The notes under the pieces: generated by a model
What the model was told of the DNA's origin: nothing
The model's input: only the letters and a program-made list of their open reading frames with translations
The model's database searches: none
Program-made: the position numbers and the translations under genes
Assembly: GCA_012960105.1 (NCBI GenBank)
Contig: DUBV01000005.1
Coordinates: forward strand, 77,000-140,999
Reading direction: 5' to 3'
Source of the DNA: Thiotrichaceae bacterium
GTDB lineage: Bacteria; Pseudomonadota; Gammaproteobacteria; Eutrophobiales; Eutrophobiaceae
DNA: 64,000 nucleotides
Part shown: one piece after another, positions 17,260 through 34,230 of the stretch
How positions within the stretch are numbered: position 1 is the stretch's first letter
How the letters are laid out: each line of letters begins with the position of its first letter

Positions 17260-17676
17260 ATGAAAAAAACACAACAGGGTTTTACCCTTATTGAATTGAT
17301 GATCGTTGTGGCAATTATCGGTATTCTTGCCGCAGTTGCTATCCCTTCTTATCAAGATTACACCAAGCGTGCGCATGTGGCTGAAGGTTTTAGTCTAGCG
17401 GGTGCAGCAAAGTTAGCAGTTGCAGAATACCATGCATCTGAAGGCGCATTTCCTACTACAAATGCTTCAGCGGGTATGTCATCTGCTACTTCTATCACTG
17501 GTAATGCTGTAAGAAGCGTTTCGGTTGGTGCTGCGGGTGCAATTACGATTACTTATAACACCAAAGTAACTGCAGGTGCGACTGTCGTATTAACGCCTTC
17601 AAATGCTATTGGCTCGATTAAATGGGTTTGTTCAGGTGGTGTAGCAACCAAGTTAAGACCTTCTAATTGTCGTTAA
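17260..17676 (+). CDS. pilA: Type IVa major pilin
   Basis: Leader [29 protein letters not shown] with Glu5, C-terminal Cys pair (WVC...NCR), AGGAG RBS. Confidence 0.97.
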
Positions 17677-17701
17677 TAATTTAACTTATTAGAAAATAGA
17701 T

Positions 17702-17736
17702 AAGCCGTTGCTGCTTTAATGCAGCATCGGCTTTTT
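17702..17736 (+). terminator. Intrinsic terminator after pilA
   Basis: Stem AGCCGTTGCTGC / GCAGCATCGGCT (one mismatch) followed by a T run. Confidence 0.85.
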
Positions 17737-17758
17737 ACTGTATGTTATTTAGTTAAAC

Positions 17759-31433: not shown

Positions 31434-31661
31434 GTGATGCTATCGGGTTTCGATACTTATTACAGAATATAACGGTAATAAACTTGATTTTGCCATGATA
31501 AATACAATCATAGATTTGGTCTCATCGATTGTTACTAAATAGGAAGTATCTTCTTATTGTTTGAAAGAGGCTATTATTATAATATTTCGAATAAATTAAG
31601 AACATCAATAATATCACAGTTTGGCACTAATTCAGTTTCAAGCTTTTAGTTGTGATAGTAG

Positions 31662-32606
31662 ATGAATCAAAATAGTAAAGGGAATATGCCAATATCACGT
31701 CTAAAAATCACATATGCACTATATTCCTTAGGCTTGGGATTTGTTTTTTACTTGCTTTACAAATCATGGCCGGAAGTCAGCGCTCAAATTATAGACTTTA
31801 AAATTAGCTACCTTGTTATTTCTACAATTGCTTTATTGTGTAATACCTTAATAGGATGTTGGTTATTAAAAAAACTTCTTAACTCTTATAAAGTATCTAT
31901 AAGCTATTTCCAAACGTGTAAAATATTTTATTTATCACAAATATCAAAATATTTACCGGGCGTTGTTTGGGGTCTTGCAATGCAAGCATCTATGCTTGAC
32001 TCTGATAAAGCAATGAAAAAAATTGTATTTTCAAATATTCGATTCTTGTTATTTATTACAGCTTTTTTTCTTTTCACTAGTTCCGCGTATCTAGCATTGA
32101 GATACTCATTAATAATAGCTTGTCTTTTATTCATAAGCTCTTTTGTGACGGTTTTTTGTCTAAATAAAGACTCTATTCTCAATATTATTTTAACTCCCTT
32201 TCATAAACTCCATTCATATTTTTATCTGGAAAAAATAAATGAATGTAAAATAAGCACTGATAAATTATTTTTATCTTGTATAGGGATATATATAACTTAT
32301 ATTCTAACAATTTCCACTATTGTTTTGGCTTTTTATGAAGTAACTTTATATGAGGCAATAGAAATTTCTATATATCAATGTATAGCATGGGTTGCAGGAA
32401 TGTTAGTATTTTTAGTGCCGGCTGGTATGGGTGTAAGAGAGGCGGCTTTTCTTGCCTTGGGAAATCTTTCAACTAATTTTTCTACAGAACAAATACAGTC
32501 TATTGCCATTCTGACAAGGTTTGTTCAGTTGATTCAAGATGTCATACTATCATTAATAGCGATACTTTTTATCAAAGCAAGGAGGTTGAGTCGCAGTTTA
32601 GGATAA
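31662..32606 (+). CDS. UPF0104 / lysylphosphatidylglycerol-synthase TM-domain membrane protein, putative flippase
   Basis: Multi-TM protein with SQISKYLPG and VPAGMGVREA motifs. Confidence 0.72.
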   Translation: MNQNSKGNMPISRLKITYALYSLGLGFVFYLLYKSWPEVSAQIIDFKISYLVISTIALLCNTLIGCWLLKKLLNSYKVSISYFQTCKIFYLSQISKYLPGVVWGLAMQASMLDSDKAMKKIVFSNIRFLLFITAFFLFTSSAYLALRYSLIIACLLFISSFVTVFCLNKDSILNIILTPFHKLHSYFYLEKINECKISTDKLFLSCIGIYITYILTISTIVLAFYEVTLYEAIEISIYQCIAWVAGMLVFLVPAGMGVREAAFLALGNLSTNFSTEQIQSIAILTRFVQLIQDVILSLIAILFIKARRLSRSLG

Positions 32607-33195
32607 ATTAAGAGTAGTTTAATATGCTACAAGTAAGTGTTCTAGATATTTATAAAGAGTTAATTTGTCTCTCTATCCCTTCTTGCGAGAAGTAAATTCT
32701 TCTAGTAATGTTTTCGCCTGAGTTTTGTTTCTGGGCTTCTATCGAGTAGCGTGACGATAATACCTTTTAATAGTTCTGCTGTCTCCATCACATAAATTTG
32801 CTATGTTCGTTTTCTGTAAGTTATTTATAGTTTATTCTGTAACAATTAATGAATGTACATGAATTTTGTGATGTTCTATTCCTTCTAAGAGAATATGGTG
32901 GAGCCATGTGATGGCTTGGAAGGAAGCCTGCTGTGCTTCACTAGGATTAATTGAAAATATGCGGTTAGGCATATTGTGTGTATTACTTGGAAGGGATATC
33001 AAAATTTTTGGTTTCGATTGTTGAATTTTATTAAGAATAAGAATTTAACTAAAGTGCTAAGGATAGTAGTAAAAGAAAGAGTGTTTATCCGAAGCAAAGA
33101 TATGACGAATACATGTATCAATTATTTAGTTACTATTAAGGTATGGGGCCAGAGAATATTTCTGATTTCTGTAACATTAAAATAGATAAAAAATT

Positions 33196-34230
33196 ATGAA
33201 GAAACGCGCATTAATTACTGGCATCTCAGGACAAGATGGGGCTTTTTTATCACAGTTCCTCCTAGAAAAAAATTATGAAATTTATGGTGCGTACAGGCGT
33301 AGTTCATCTCCAATTACTTGGCGTCTTAACGAATTAGGGATTGACGGCGATGTAAAAATGGTACCGTTTGAACTGCTGGATTATTCAAACATATTAAGCG
33401 TAATTGGCGAAGTGCAACCGGATGAAATATATAATTTAGCTGCACAAAGTTTTGTTAAAGGATCATTCGAAAAACCGATTTATACCGCTGATGTAGATGC
33501 TGTTGGTGTGTTGAAAGTATTAGAGGCAATTAGAGTTGTTAATCCAGAAATAAAATTTTATCAAGCATCAACGTCTGAATTATTTGGTGTCCCAAAGGAA
33601 TTTCCTCAAACAGAAACAACACCATTTTATCCTCGGAGTCCCTATTCCGCAGCGAAATTATTTGCACATACTATTACTATTAACTATAGAGAAGCGTATG
33701 GACTTCATGCTTCTGCTGGTATCTTATTTAATCATGAGTCGGAATTTAGAGGAATAGGTTTTGTAACTAGAAAGATCACCTCTTCATTAGCTAGTATAAA
33801 ACAAGGGAATCTCGATTCTTTCGAATTAGGCAATATATATTCCAAGAGGGACTGGGGCTACGCAAAAGATTATGTGTCTGCTATGTGGGAAATGTTACAG
33901 CAGGAAAAAGCGGATGAATATGTTATTGCAACTGGAGAATCACATACAATTAAAGAGTTTATTACGTTAGCAGCTGCGTCTATTGGGTTTGATCTAGAAT
34001 GGTCTGGAGAAGGAGTAAATGAATATGCAATTGATAAAAAGAGAGGAAAAAAAATAATTACGATTAATGAGAAGTATTTTCGTCCTTCAGAAGTTGACAT
34101 GTTACAAGGAGATATAAGTAAAGCGAAAGAAATATTAGGTTGGGAACCAACTGTTACGTTTGAACAACTTGCTGAAAAAATGGCAGTATCAGATTATGAA
34201 AGAGTGAAAAATGGAAAGCGGTTAGTTTAA
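33196..34230 (+). CDS. gmd: GDP-mannose 4,6-dehydratase
   Basis: ALITGISGQDG, YNLAAQSFV, YQASTSE, FYPRSPYSAAK, GILFNHES, FVTRKIT, RDWGYAKDYV. Confidence 0.95.
   Translation: MKKRALITGISGQDGAFLSQFLLEKNYEIYGAYRRSSSPITWRLNELGIDGDVKMVPFELLDYSNILSVIGEVQPDEIYNLAAQSFVKGSFEKPIYTADVDAVGVLKVLEAIRVVNPEIKFYQASTSELFGVPKEFPQTETTPFYPRSPYSAAKLFAHTITINYREAYGLHASAGILFNHESEFRGIGFVTRKITSSLASIKQGNLDSFELGNIYSKRDWGYAKDYVSAMWEMLQQEKADEYVIATGESHTIKEFITLAAASIGFDLEWSGEGVNEYAIDKKRGKKIITINEKYFRPSEVDMLQGDISKAKEILGWEPTVTFEQLAEKMAVSDYERVKNGKRLV

Follow-up and report, generated by a model that had tools for sequence, protein, structure and literature searches.

The window analysed here is a stretch of 64,000 nucleotides from a Thiotrichaceae bacterium (assembly GCA_012960105.1, contig DUBV01000005.1, here C5, positions 77,000 to 140,999 of the forward strand), and our subject is a type IV pilin locus within it, in which the major pilin gene, pilA, is followed by an island of glycosyltransferase, methyltransferase and sugar-modifying genes. 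The source genome is 2.54 Mb long with a G+C content of 0.389, and its assembly is 98.5% complete. Genes were called from a listing of open reading frames (ORFs) together with Pfam and NCBIfam scans, in which 21 ORFs over positions 14017–38052 were scanned. The gene order is pilS, pilR, pilA, a 638-amino acid (aa) ORF, a cupin, a C-methyltransferase, a short-chain dehydrogenase/reductase (SDR), a GFO/IDH/MocA oxidoreductase, a 518-aa ORF (518a), a family 2 glycosyltransferase (GT2) on the minus strand, a methyltransferase, a second 518-aa ORF (518b), a second GT2, a further methyltransferase, a family 4 glycosyltransferase (GT4) on the minus strand, an LPG_synthase_TM gene and gmd, followed by suhB, a SpoU methylase gene and purM. 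The G+C content of positions 17759–34230 is 0.334, compared to 0.389 genome-wide, and no tRNA gene is present within the window. A first-pass annotation of this DNA, made from its letters alone, had listed the same genes, and all were found at its coordinates by ORF calling, Pfam and NCBIfam. It had also reported that Wzx, Wzy, Wzz, an ABC exporter, a phosphoglycosyltransferase and a PglL-type (Wzy_C) enzyme are missing from the island, and indeed none of these was matched by Pfam in the 21 ORFs. Three genes are central to what follows:

17260–17676, plus strand: pilA, type IVa major pilin, 138 aa (Pfam Pilin PF00114, 7.7e-25; N_methyl, 1.7e-10).
17759–19675, plus strand: 638-aa protein with a glycosyltransferase C fold (GT-C; residues ~3–435) and C-terminal tetratricopeptide repeats (TPR; ~440–638), proposed pilin O-glycosyltransferase.
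28708–29565, plus strand: GT2_285, 285 aa, with two C-terminal transmembrane helices, proposed undecaprenyl-phosphate-monosaccharide synthase.

The gene for the 638-aa protein starts 83 bp past the pilA stop codon. Its product has no Pfam or NCBIfam match (Pfam at E 0.01 or better), the two 518-aa ORFs likewise belong to no family in these scans, and phmmer searches of the PDB with three large membrane proteins returned weak PilF/TPR matches or none. Its AlphaFold model has a pLDDT of 91.2 and a pTM of 0.89. When the whole model was submitted to Foldseek, only TPR proteins were matched, by the C-terminal part. A wide structural search with VIA-align matched the remaining domain to Pmt1/2 (6p2r_B, Z 17.6, root-mean-square deviation 4.6, 334 residues aligned), and also to Pmt4 (Z 17.4), AglB (Z 17.0), STT3 (Z 15.3) and ArnT (Z 15.0). 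In an alignment of 47 sequences D36 and D37 are near-invariant and many loop residues are invariant; the two aspartates belong to the sequence FLFDD (residues 33–37) in the first periplasmic loop, and an aromatic-x-aromatic-DD motif is present in 238 of 240 family proteins. The model and the alignment show the 638-aa protein as a predicted GT-C fold with a conserved Asp-Asp pair in its first periplasmic loop, followed by a predicted periplasmic TPR domain. The label given to it earlier, a TMTC-like GT-C, is fair as a description of architecture (GT-C matches at Z 15–17.6 plus TPR in the model). Among 8,000 candidates scored, 3,451 relatives were found at E ≤0.001; where source names were given, these were ‘TPR repeat protein’ or ‘protein O-mannosyl-transferase’.

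In a scan of one genome per species, at least 596 relatives of the 638-aa protein were confirmed, and the best 80 loci were examined for their gene order. In 53 of these 80, the GT-C/TPR gene is preceded by a same-strand pilin ORF that ends no more than 500 bp away, and in six further loci a pilin is found up to 3.5 kb upstream on the same strand. These loci come from Acinetobacter, Moraxella, Rhodanobacter, Lysobacter, Dyella, Alcanivorax, methanotrophs and a species of the Pseudomonas lineage. The closest relative among the matches listed (59% identity) is from a Thiotrichaceae metagenome-assembled genome with the same sucDC-pilA context. Across the Gammaproteobacteria, members of the 638-aa family are locked to pilin genes.

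Several loci carry more than one such gene. The GT-C/TPR gene is tandemly duplicated in locus L047 (7945–11956) and in G161, a genome of the same genus as ours. A second gene of ~635–736 aa, mostly without a Pfam match, directly follows the first in L017, L029, L042, L052 and L069 and in the Xanthomonadales-type loci L008, L022, L025, L048 and L066, and it may be a paralog. Such gene pairs might serve two different sugars or two sets of sites.

All island proteins were searched with tblastn against the 80 loci, and GT2_285 is the one island gene that travels with the pilin/GT-C pair. Downstream sequence of at least 1.2 kb is available for 74 loci, and 41 of these contain an ortholog (defined at ≥45% identity; those found are 54–67% identical). 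In 31 of the 41 it directly follows the GT-C gene, starting within 700 bp on the same strand. GT2_285 is conserved far better than the GT-C/TPR protein, which has ~30% identity. Its sequence matches in the PDB are Dol-P-mannose synthase (4.1e-14) and ArnC (6.9e-14), and it aligns along its full length with GtrB (sll0501, residues 27–311, E 4.3e-10); all its closest solved relatives are polyprenyl-phosphate monosaccharide synthases. Because a GtrB/DPM1/ArnC-like GT2 co-occurs in 41 of 74 loci, the donor of the 638-aa enzyme is very likely, as judged from sequence, a polyprenyl-phosphate monosaccharide.

Some members of the family may be supplied differently. In 30 family loci that have no GT2, the first four or fewer downstream ORFs were scanned. 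A Wzx-type gene was found in L019, L052 and L069, an MsbA/PglK-like ABC transporter in L048 and L066, a DegT aminotransferase in L019, L025 and L048, and NeuB in L019; donors of more than one kind are therefore probably used within the family. The content of L019, L048, L052, L066 and L069 suggests pre-assembled or nonulosonic-acid glycans instead of an undecaprenyl-phosphate (Und-P) hexose. IspD-like genes are also among those that follow GT-C/TPR genes in this group of five loci.

In our window GT2_285 is 9 kb away from the GT-C gene. Given this spacing, the ~9-kb segment from the cupin gene to 518b reads as an insertion into a pilA / GT-C / GT2 module. The inserted genes and those between GT2_285 and suhB are:

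20024–23656, plus strand: four-gene operon comprising a cupin (20024–20440), a C-methyltransferase (20449–21687), an SDR (21684–22745) and a GFO/IDH/MocA oxidoreductase (22742–23656).
23734–25290, plus strand: 518a, 518-aa GT-C, ArnT/PMT-like, 27% identical to 518b over 492 residues (E 2e-32).
25365–26060, minus strand: GT2_231, 231 aa, polyprenyl-phosphate sugar synthase type (AglJ/PpgS/DPM-like; Pfam Glycos_transf_2, 5.9e-32).
26187–26909, plus strand: MT240, 240-aa S-adenosylmethionine (SAM) methyltransferase with a hydrophobic C-terminus (Pfam Methyltransf_23, 3.7e-14).
27120–28676, plus strand: 518b, 518-aa GT-C, ArnT/PMT-like, with a small C-terminal periplasmic domain.
29580–30344, plus strand: MT254, 254-aa SAM methyltransferase adjoining GT2_285 (Pfam Methyltransf_11, 1.4e-24).
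30372–31433, minus strand: GT4, 353 aa, a cytoplasmic GT-B enzyme that uses nucleotide sugars (Pfam Glycos_transf_1, 4.1e-37).
31662–32606, plus strand: LPG_synthase_TM protein, 314 aa, of the MprF flippase-domain family (Pfam PF03706, 1.9e-12).
33196–34230, plus strand: gmd, GDP-mannose 4,6-dehydratase (TIGR01472, 1e-132; 442.5 bits against a cut-off of 415).

The genes of the four-gene operon are translationally coupled, with stop and start codons that overlap or lie at most 9 bp apart. Its C-methyltransferase (412 aa) contains Methyltransf_13, Methyltransf_23 and Methyltransf_14 domains and matches the D-mycarose 3-C-methyltransferase 4rv9 (3.2e-90) and TcaB9 (1.1e-73, residues 8–411); this three-domain make-up and full-length similarity are those of nucleoside-diphosphate-sugar 3-C-methyltransferases of the TylC3/TcaB9 type. 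The closest match of the SDR is UDP-glucuronate decarboxylase (UXS, 4.4e-56) and not a 4,6-dehydratase, a hint that the sugar may be a C-methylated pentose and not a 6-deoxyhexose. The GFO-type enzyme matches the uncharacterised oxidoreductase 3c1a (3.4e-50) and, weakly, a sugar 3-ketoreductase (4e-07); nothing informative was found for the cupin in the PDB sequence search. A plausible product of the operon is a nucleotide sugar with a 3-C-methyl branch, derived from a 4-keto intermediate whose source would be the UXS-like SDR or Gmd. A Legionella- or Coxiella-type virenose route via gmd was considered for the C-methyl sugar; the SDR is UXS-like, and gmd is 10 kb away. Methylated or branched sugars had been proposed before, and the branched sugar is plausible, since the C-methyltransferase matches sugar 3-C-methyltransferases along its full length.

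The model of 518b (pLDDT 92.6) is a GT-C fold over its whole length, with ALG12 (Z 22.1) and ArnT (5f15, Z 21.3, 419 residues aligned) as its best matches, followed by Pmt1/2 (Z 21.1), AglB (19.3) and PglB (19.2). Homologs of the 518 family number 115 at E ≤0.001, some of which carry PMT_2 or PMT domains, and D45 is invariant in the family alignment. The family has a third member in the window, in a second patch of low G+C (0.34) at positions 4012–11509, upstream of sucCD, where nadE lies between it and three minus-strand genes:

4012–5598, plus strand: orf528, third paralog of the 518 family (tblastn, 26–27% identity to both 518s over ~490–510 residues).
7382–11509, minus strand: triad of orf603 (9698–11509), GT2_436 (436 aa) and a 249-aa methyltransferase, MT249 (Pfam, NCBIfam).

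By homology to 518b, 518a and orf528 are classed as GT-C proteins. All three members of the family in this genome are within the window and no more than ~14 kb from pilA, and orf528 groups with genes found at the equivalent site, upstream of pilS, in other genomes. In the minus-strand triad, GT2_436 is AglJ/Dol-P-hexose transferase-like with a long N-terminal extension. The language-model features of orf603 resemble PMT_2 clusters (score 0.99, 24 of 30 matches), which we take as a lead only; an hhalign comparison of orf603 with the 518 family was negative (probability 0.45%). The first-pass annotation had foreseen up to four GT-C proteins beyond the 638-aa protein. Two of them, 518a and 518b, lie in the range to which it referred; a count of four takes in two genes outside that range, of which orf528 holds and orf603 is the lead just described.

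GT2_231 has AglJ (9.2e-32) and PpgS (7.3e-12) as NCBIfam matches, both below cut-off, and its homologs adjoin 518-type GT-Cs in L047, L112, L126 and L127. Every polyprenyl-phosphate-type GT2 in the window adjoins a methyltransferase and a GT-C or candidate GT-C, resulting in three groupings: orf603 with GT2_436 and MT249; 518a and 518b with GT2_231 and MT240; and GT2_285 with MT254. These groupings would fit methylated lipid-linked donors. The LPG_synthase_TM protein corresponds to the gene that had been called flippase-like, and it is a candidate flippase for a lipid-linked sugar. No homolog of it was found in the 80 related loci, so that this role, if correct, would be peculiar to this island.

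In order to place the 518 family, 400 other genomes sampled from the class were surveyed, of which 17 contain the family, with 26 matches. Twenty neighbourhoods were taken, covering 21 of the 26 matches and 12 of the 17 genomes and leaving out five matches in five genomes. Three of the 20 neighbourhoods (three of the 12 other genomes) have pilA and a GT-C/TPR gene within 10 kb. In two of these, L112 and L120, the 518-type gene is located between the GT-C/TPR gene and the GT2_285 ortholog, as in our window, and in L123 it is upstream of pilS, matching the position of orf528. In L115 (5899–13836, genome G176) a 518-type GT-C heads an operon of a GT-C, a GT2 and two methyltransferases, divergent from pilB-pilC, the site where Pseudomonas has pilA and its accessory gene. 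Only pilS and/or pilR are near the 518-type gene in L118 and L127. The link of 518 GT-Cs to pilin is positional: it is recurrent and well above chance, and it is not specific.

The same site was examined in G161 (G161:C5:100000–134999; loci L135 and L136). The order there is sucC, pilS, pilR, two pilins, two tandem GT-C/TPR genes and a GT2 that is 62% identical to GT2_285. After these come Wzm and Wzt, genes for sugar nucleotides, several more glycosyltransferases, one sulfotransferase and a pair of radical SAM genes. The Wzm/Wzt cluster has heptose-type sugar genes and includes SIS, HldE-like and NUDIX genes. At the far end are a 518-type GT-C, a GT2_231-like GT2 and an SDR, and then suhB. 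Within the genus, the stretch from the pilin module to suhB is a glycan island of variable content.

Upstream of the island lie the regulators and signals of pilA:

14017–15630, plus strand: pilS (Pfam 6TM_PilS, 2e-32; HATPase_c; HisKA).
15633–16940, plus strand: pilR (Pfam Sigma54_activat, 4.2e-68; Response_reg; HTH_8), with pilS a two-component regulator pair upstream of pilA.
17119–17133, plus strand: weak candidate for a sigma-54 type element (GG-N10-GC), ~130 bp ahead of pilA, with 2 mismatches to TGGCAC-N5-TTGC.
17709–17726, plus strand: terminator-like hairpin between pilA and the 638-aa GT-C gene.

A search of the window for sigma-54 promoters gave 53 matches where 44 were expected, which is not above chance. 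The hairpin 3′ of pilA is consistent with the attenuated expression of pilin accessory genes described in the accessible part of PMC11841053. Genes pilB and pilC are ~3–6 kb before the start of the window on the same contig; pilus machinery is present in the genome. Elsewhere in the genome, contig C14 contains a second gmd (52% identity) and a GT2_231-like gene, and the start of contig C18 encodes an SDR with 69% identity to the one next to suhB in G161; surface-glycan genes therefore also exist beyond the window.

The presumed acceptor is PilA, in which the Ser/Thr fraction of mature residues 54–100 is 0.298, against a median of 0.234 in the 53 family-adjacent pilins that formed the sole comparison set. 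We propose that GT2_285, working at the cytoplasmic face of the membrane, transfers a monosaccharide from its nucleotide-sugar form to undecaprenyl phosphate, that a flippase, possibly the LPG_synthase_TM protein, carries the lipid-linked sugar across, and that the GT-C/TPR enzyme would then transfer it to Ser/Thr residues of PilA in the periplasm while its TPR domain holds the pilin. The inserted ~9 kb, with the 3-C-methyl sugar operon, a second GT2, a methyltransferase and two ArnT-like GT-Cs, would represent extra modules of donor supply and transferase, by which methylated or branched sugars are attached in the periplasm, most likely to the pilin glycan.

That the pilA / GT-C / GT2 core is a pilin glycosylation module we consider quite probable. 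The first-pass annotation had likewise suggested pilin glycosylation by a GT-C from a lipid-linked monosaccharide, and both the pilin linkage (53 of 80 loci) and the GT2 ortholog (41 of 74) bear this out. It had also pointed to neighbourhoods in other genomes, where the core does recur and the 518 GT-Cs are mostly elsewhere. Whether the two 518-aa GT-Cs act on the pilin glycan is somewhat less certain than an even chance, and their stepwise periplasmic extension of this glycan, for which position is the evidence, is possible. Taking the locus as a whole, we lean slightly towards a pilin O-glycosylation locus of the kind served by TfpW, the pilin D-arabinofuranosyltransferase of Pseudomonas aeruginosa group IV (Pa5196, PA7), with a different supply of sugar. 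By analogy with TfpW, the benefit would likely be antigenic and phage-receptor variation of the pilus.

A number of observations weigh against this. The support for PilA glycosylation is entirely comparative or derived from structure prediction. The GT-C/TPR family is not invariably pilin-adjacent: the pilin is elsewhere in the locus in eight of the 80 loci and none was found in ten, and three have no upstream sequence. Fourteen of the 20 neighbourhoods of 518-type genes, L126 included, have neither the pilA/GT-C pair nor pilS or pilR nearby; nine of the 12 annotated non-pil neighbourhoods are lone genes amid housekeeping genes, and a 518-type gene is present in only three of the 80 pilin-linked loci. 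A tree of 25 sequences was examined for a clade of 518-type GT-Cs specific to pil loci, and none was found: members linked to pil genes are spread over the tree, and both 518a and 518b have a non-pil gene as their partner; this tree is only indicative, with L065 and three other rows long-branched and 15 rows skewed in composition. No GtrA flippase (PF04138) was found among the island ORFs, nor any other ORF with the size of a GtrA. SAM methyltransferases and GT4 enzymes act in the cytoplasm, and therefore part of any glycan would be made before flipping. Finally, the G161 interval looks like an ABC-transporter polysaccharide locus, which is the strongest support for the first alternative considered below.

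According to this alternative the genes dedicated to the pilin are limited to pilA, the 638-aa GT-C and GT2_285, with the neighbouring methyltransferase and GT4 as possible additions, and the inserted genes are Gtr- or ArnT-like and decorate lipopolysaccharide (LPS; its lipid A, core or O-chain) or another envelope glycan, the pilA–suhB interval being a glycan hot spot. The Wzm/Wzt cluster that occupies the site in G161, where a GT2_231-like/518-like pair stands at the suhB end, makes an LPS or other-glycan role a real rival, and such a role is consistent with the alignment of the 518b model to ArnT across its whole length, with the location of most 518-family members away from pil genes and with the low G+C of the island, which fits a swappable cassette. 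However, in our window and in L112 and L120 the 518-type gene is inside the pilin GT-C–GT2 module and not beside it. Searches of our 98.5%-complete assembly found neither a Wzm homolog nor Wzt_C nor a PF01943 Wzx that could serve an O-polymer, and, G161 aside, none of the 12 annotated non-pil 518 neighbourhoods is a recognisable O-antigen cluster. We regard this alternative as doubtful.

The 638-aa enzyme might otherwise be an oligosaccharyltransferase. GT2_285 would then start a glycan on undecaprenyl phosphate that the GT4 and methyltransferases build up, and the product would be flipped and transferred en bloc, following the logic of haloarchaeal AglJ / AglG-I-E / AglP / AglB. The best NCBIfam match of GT2_285 is AglJ (9.3e-36, below cut-off), the GT4 and the SAM methyltransferases are cytoplasmic, the accessible part of the TfpW preprint favours transfer of oligomers (10.1101/2020.04.19.049825), and the Wzx-type, ABC transporter and NeuB genes of the GT2-less loci described above point to pre-assembled glycans. 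A GT4 homolog is within 3 kb of the GT2_285 ortholog in 12 of 41 loci (an MT254-type methyltransferase in three of 41), but these GT4 matches are 24–44% identical and may not be orthologs, and the other 29 loci have no GT4 nearby. The solved relatives of GT2_285 make monosaccharide donors, and an oligosaccharyltransferase would leave the extra GT-Cs unexplained; we find this alternative unlikely. It is very improbable that the 638-aa protein does not modify pilin, being instead a TPR membrane protein of pilus biogenesis or acting on another periplasmic substrate with its position reflecting co-regulation: 20 of the 77 loci with upstream sequence are counted as having no adjacent pilin and the family has no Pfam or NCBIfam model, but a GT-C fold with the DD pair in 238 of 240 members and a polyprenyl-phosphate sugar synthase directly after the gene in 31 loci speak against it, as does TfpW, in the literature accessible to us the sole characterised enzyme of the same architecture and position, which glycosylates pilin.

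Preferring pilin O-glycosylation, we can also formulate a bolder version, which we offer tentatively. In it the 638-aa family, with its at least 596 matches in species-representative genomes, would be a pilin-dedicated GT-C/TPR family distinct from TfpW and a bacterial counterpart of PMT/TMTC, and three GT-C + GT2 + methyltransferase triads would here build a methylated, C-branched glycan sugar by sugar in the periplasm.

Pilin glycosylation alters the antigenicity of the pilus and blocks pilus-specific phages. To our knowledge, its known routes are oligosaccharyltransferases of the Wzy_C type and a single GT-C example, TfpW, which uses D-arabinofuranose. The comparative data point to a much broader group of pilA-linked GT-C/TPR proteins in environmental and host-associated Gammaproteobacteria, mostly with a GtrB-like GT2 and in some cases with quite different sugar cassettes. 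If our interpretation is true, pilin, GT-C and GT2 would form a simple module of three genes, protein O-glycosylation from lipid-linked monosaccharides would be wider in Gram-negatives, and the pilA–suhB interval would be a variable surface-glycan site within the genus.

Among known systems, PglL, TfpO and PglS (Wzy_C family) also glycosylate pilins, and TfpO is likewise encoded right after pilA, as given in the accessible part of 10.1101/2020.04.19.049825. They differ in fold and transfer oligosaccharides linked to undecaprenyl pyrophosphate en bloc. The island contains no Wzy_C (PF04932) gene; the single such protein of the genome is encoded on contig C50.

In the eukaryotic and actinobacterial O-mannosylation of proteins by PMT1/2, PMT4, TMTC1-4, TMEM260 and Ppm1/Pmt, polyprenyl-phosphate mannose from a DPM1-type GT2 feeds a GT-C. 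In structural comparison the 638-aa protein scores highest with yeast Pmt1/2 and Pmt4, and it shares with TMTC and TMEM260, as far as these are described in the accessible sources, a GT-C domain followed by TPR repeats. PMT, PMT_2 and DUF1736 signatures were not found in it by Pfam, so that only architecture is common with TMTC, and the 638-aa family differs from these enzymes in its dedication to one neighbouring substrate gene.

The ArnC/ArnT pair for lipid A aminoarabinose (Ara4N) resembles our locus as it combines a GT2 with a GT-C acting on an Und-P-monosaccharide, 518b spanning ArnT and GT2_285 matching ArnC. It differs in that ArnA, ArnB and ArnD genes for Ara4N are absent here and the sugar operon has a 3-C-methyltransferase. 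In the GtrA/GtrB/GtrC systems of Shigella and Salmonella O-antigen, the GT2 makes an Und-P-monosaccharide, a flippase exports it and a GT-C transfers the sugar in the periplasm, according to the accessible part of PMC11127046. GT2_285 is GtrB-like with C-terminal membrane helices, and L047 contains an operon of GtrA, GT2 and a 518-type GT-C. The differences are that the proposed acceptor here is a protein, that multiple GT-Cs are combined with methyltransferases and that an LPG_synthase_TM protein stands in place of GtrA.

The closest comparison is TfpW. The accessible part of its preprint describes a GT-C of 646 aa (AAM52060.1 in PA7) that is predicted to span the membrane with 11 helices and ends in a TPR domain, encoded directly after pilA, with a DDx motif in periplasmic loop 1 and a Y-x6-P-F-x7-P motif in loop 4 that is reported as conserved among homologs; the donor is polyprenyl-phosphate D-arabinofuranose made via DprE1/DprE2-type enzymes, and homologs beside pilA are noted in Azotobacter, Acinetobacter (A. 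venetianus), Teredinibacter, Pseudomonas indica and Kingella (K. denitrificans) (10.1101/2020.04.19.049825). Glycosylation by TfpW and TfpO protects against pilus phages, as stated in the accessible part of PMC11841053. As far as these sources go, TfpW and the 638-aa protein have in common their position next to pilA, size, GT-C fold, loop-1 DD and C-terminal TPR domain. With this precedent the kind of glycosylation is not new, and the earlier description of the system as undescribed does not hold, TfpW being already a pilA-adjacent GT-C with TPR and a DD motif whose homologs in other genera had been noted.

The two also differ. The loop-4 motif of TfpW is present in none of the 240 family proteins, and in strict or relaxed form in none of 19 named loci, including six from Acinetobacter; the 638-aa family keeps only its Y272-x6-P279. 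The partner gene here is a GtrB/DPM1-like GT2 and not a D-arabinofuranose pathway based on phosphoribosyl pyrophosphate (DprE1, DprE2, DPPR synthase). A DprE1-type gene (PF04030, ALO, the C-terminal domain of DprE1) was found neither in this genome, in a search that did detect it in a Corynebacterium control, nor above cut-off in three other genomes with the GT-C/TPR family. In the family to which the Pseudomonas-lineage member belongs, PF04030 was too general as a DprE1 marker (74 of 401 genomes match). Five genomes with a distinct partial ALO match have no match to the GT-C/TPR family profile, which has no bearing either way. Genes for D-arabinofuranose were likewise not found in the first four or fewer downstream ORFs of the 30 GT2-less loci. 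The family is set apart from TfpW by published motif, donor genes and description and not by direct alignment; homologs of its Pseudomonas-lineage member are named only ‘tetratricopeptide repeat protein’, and ‘TfpW’ does not occur among the source names. A TfpW-like enzyme that has a GtrB-type GT2 as its partner is not described in the literature that we searched. The 638-aa protein is proposed to work like TfpW and is not filed as TfpW. What is new is a large family that differs from TfpW in motif and donor and is tied to a GtrB-like GT2, here together with extra GT-C/GT2/methyltransferase modules and a C-methyl sugar operon.

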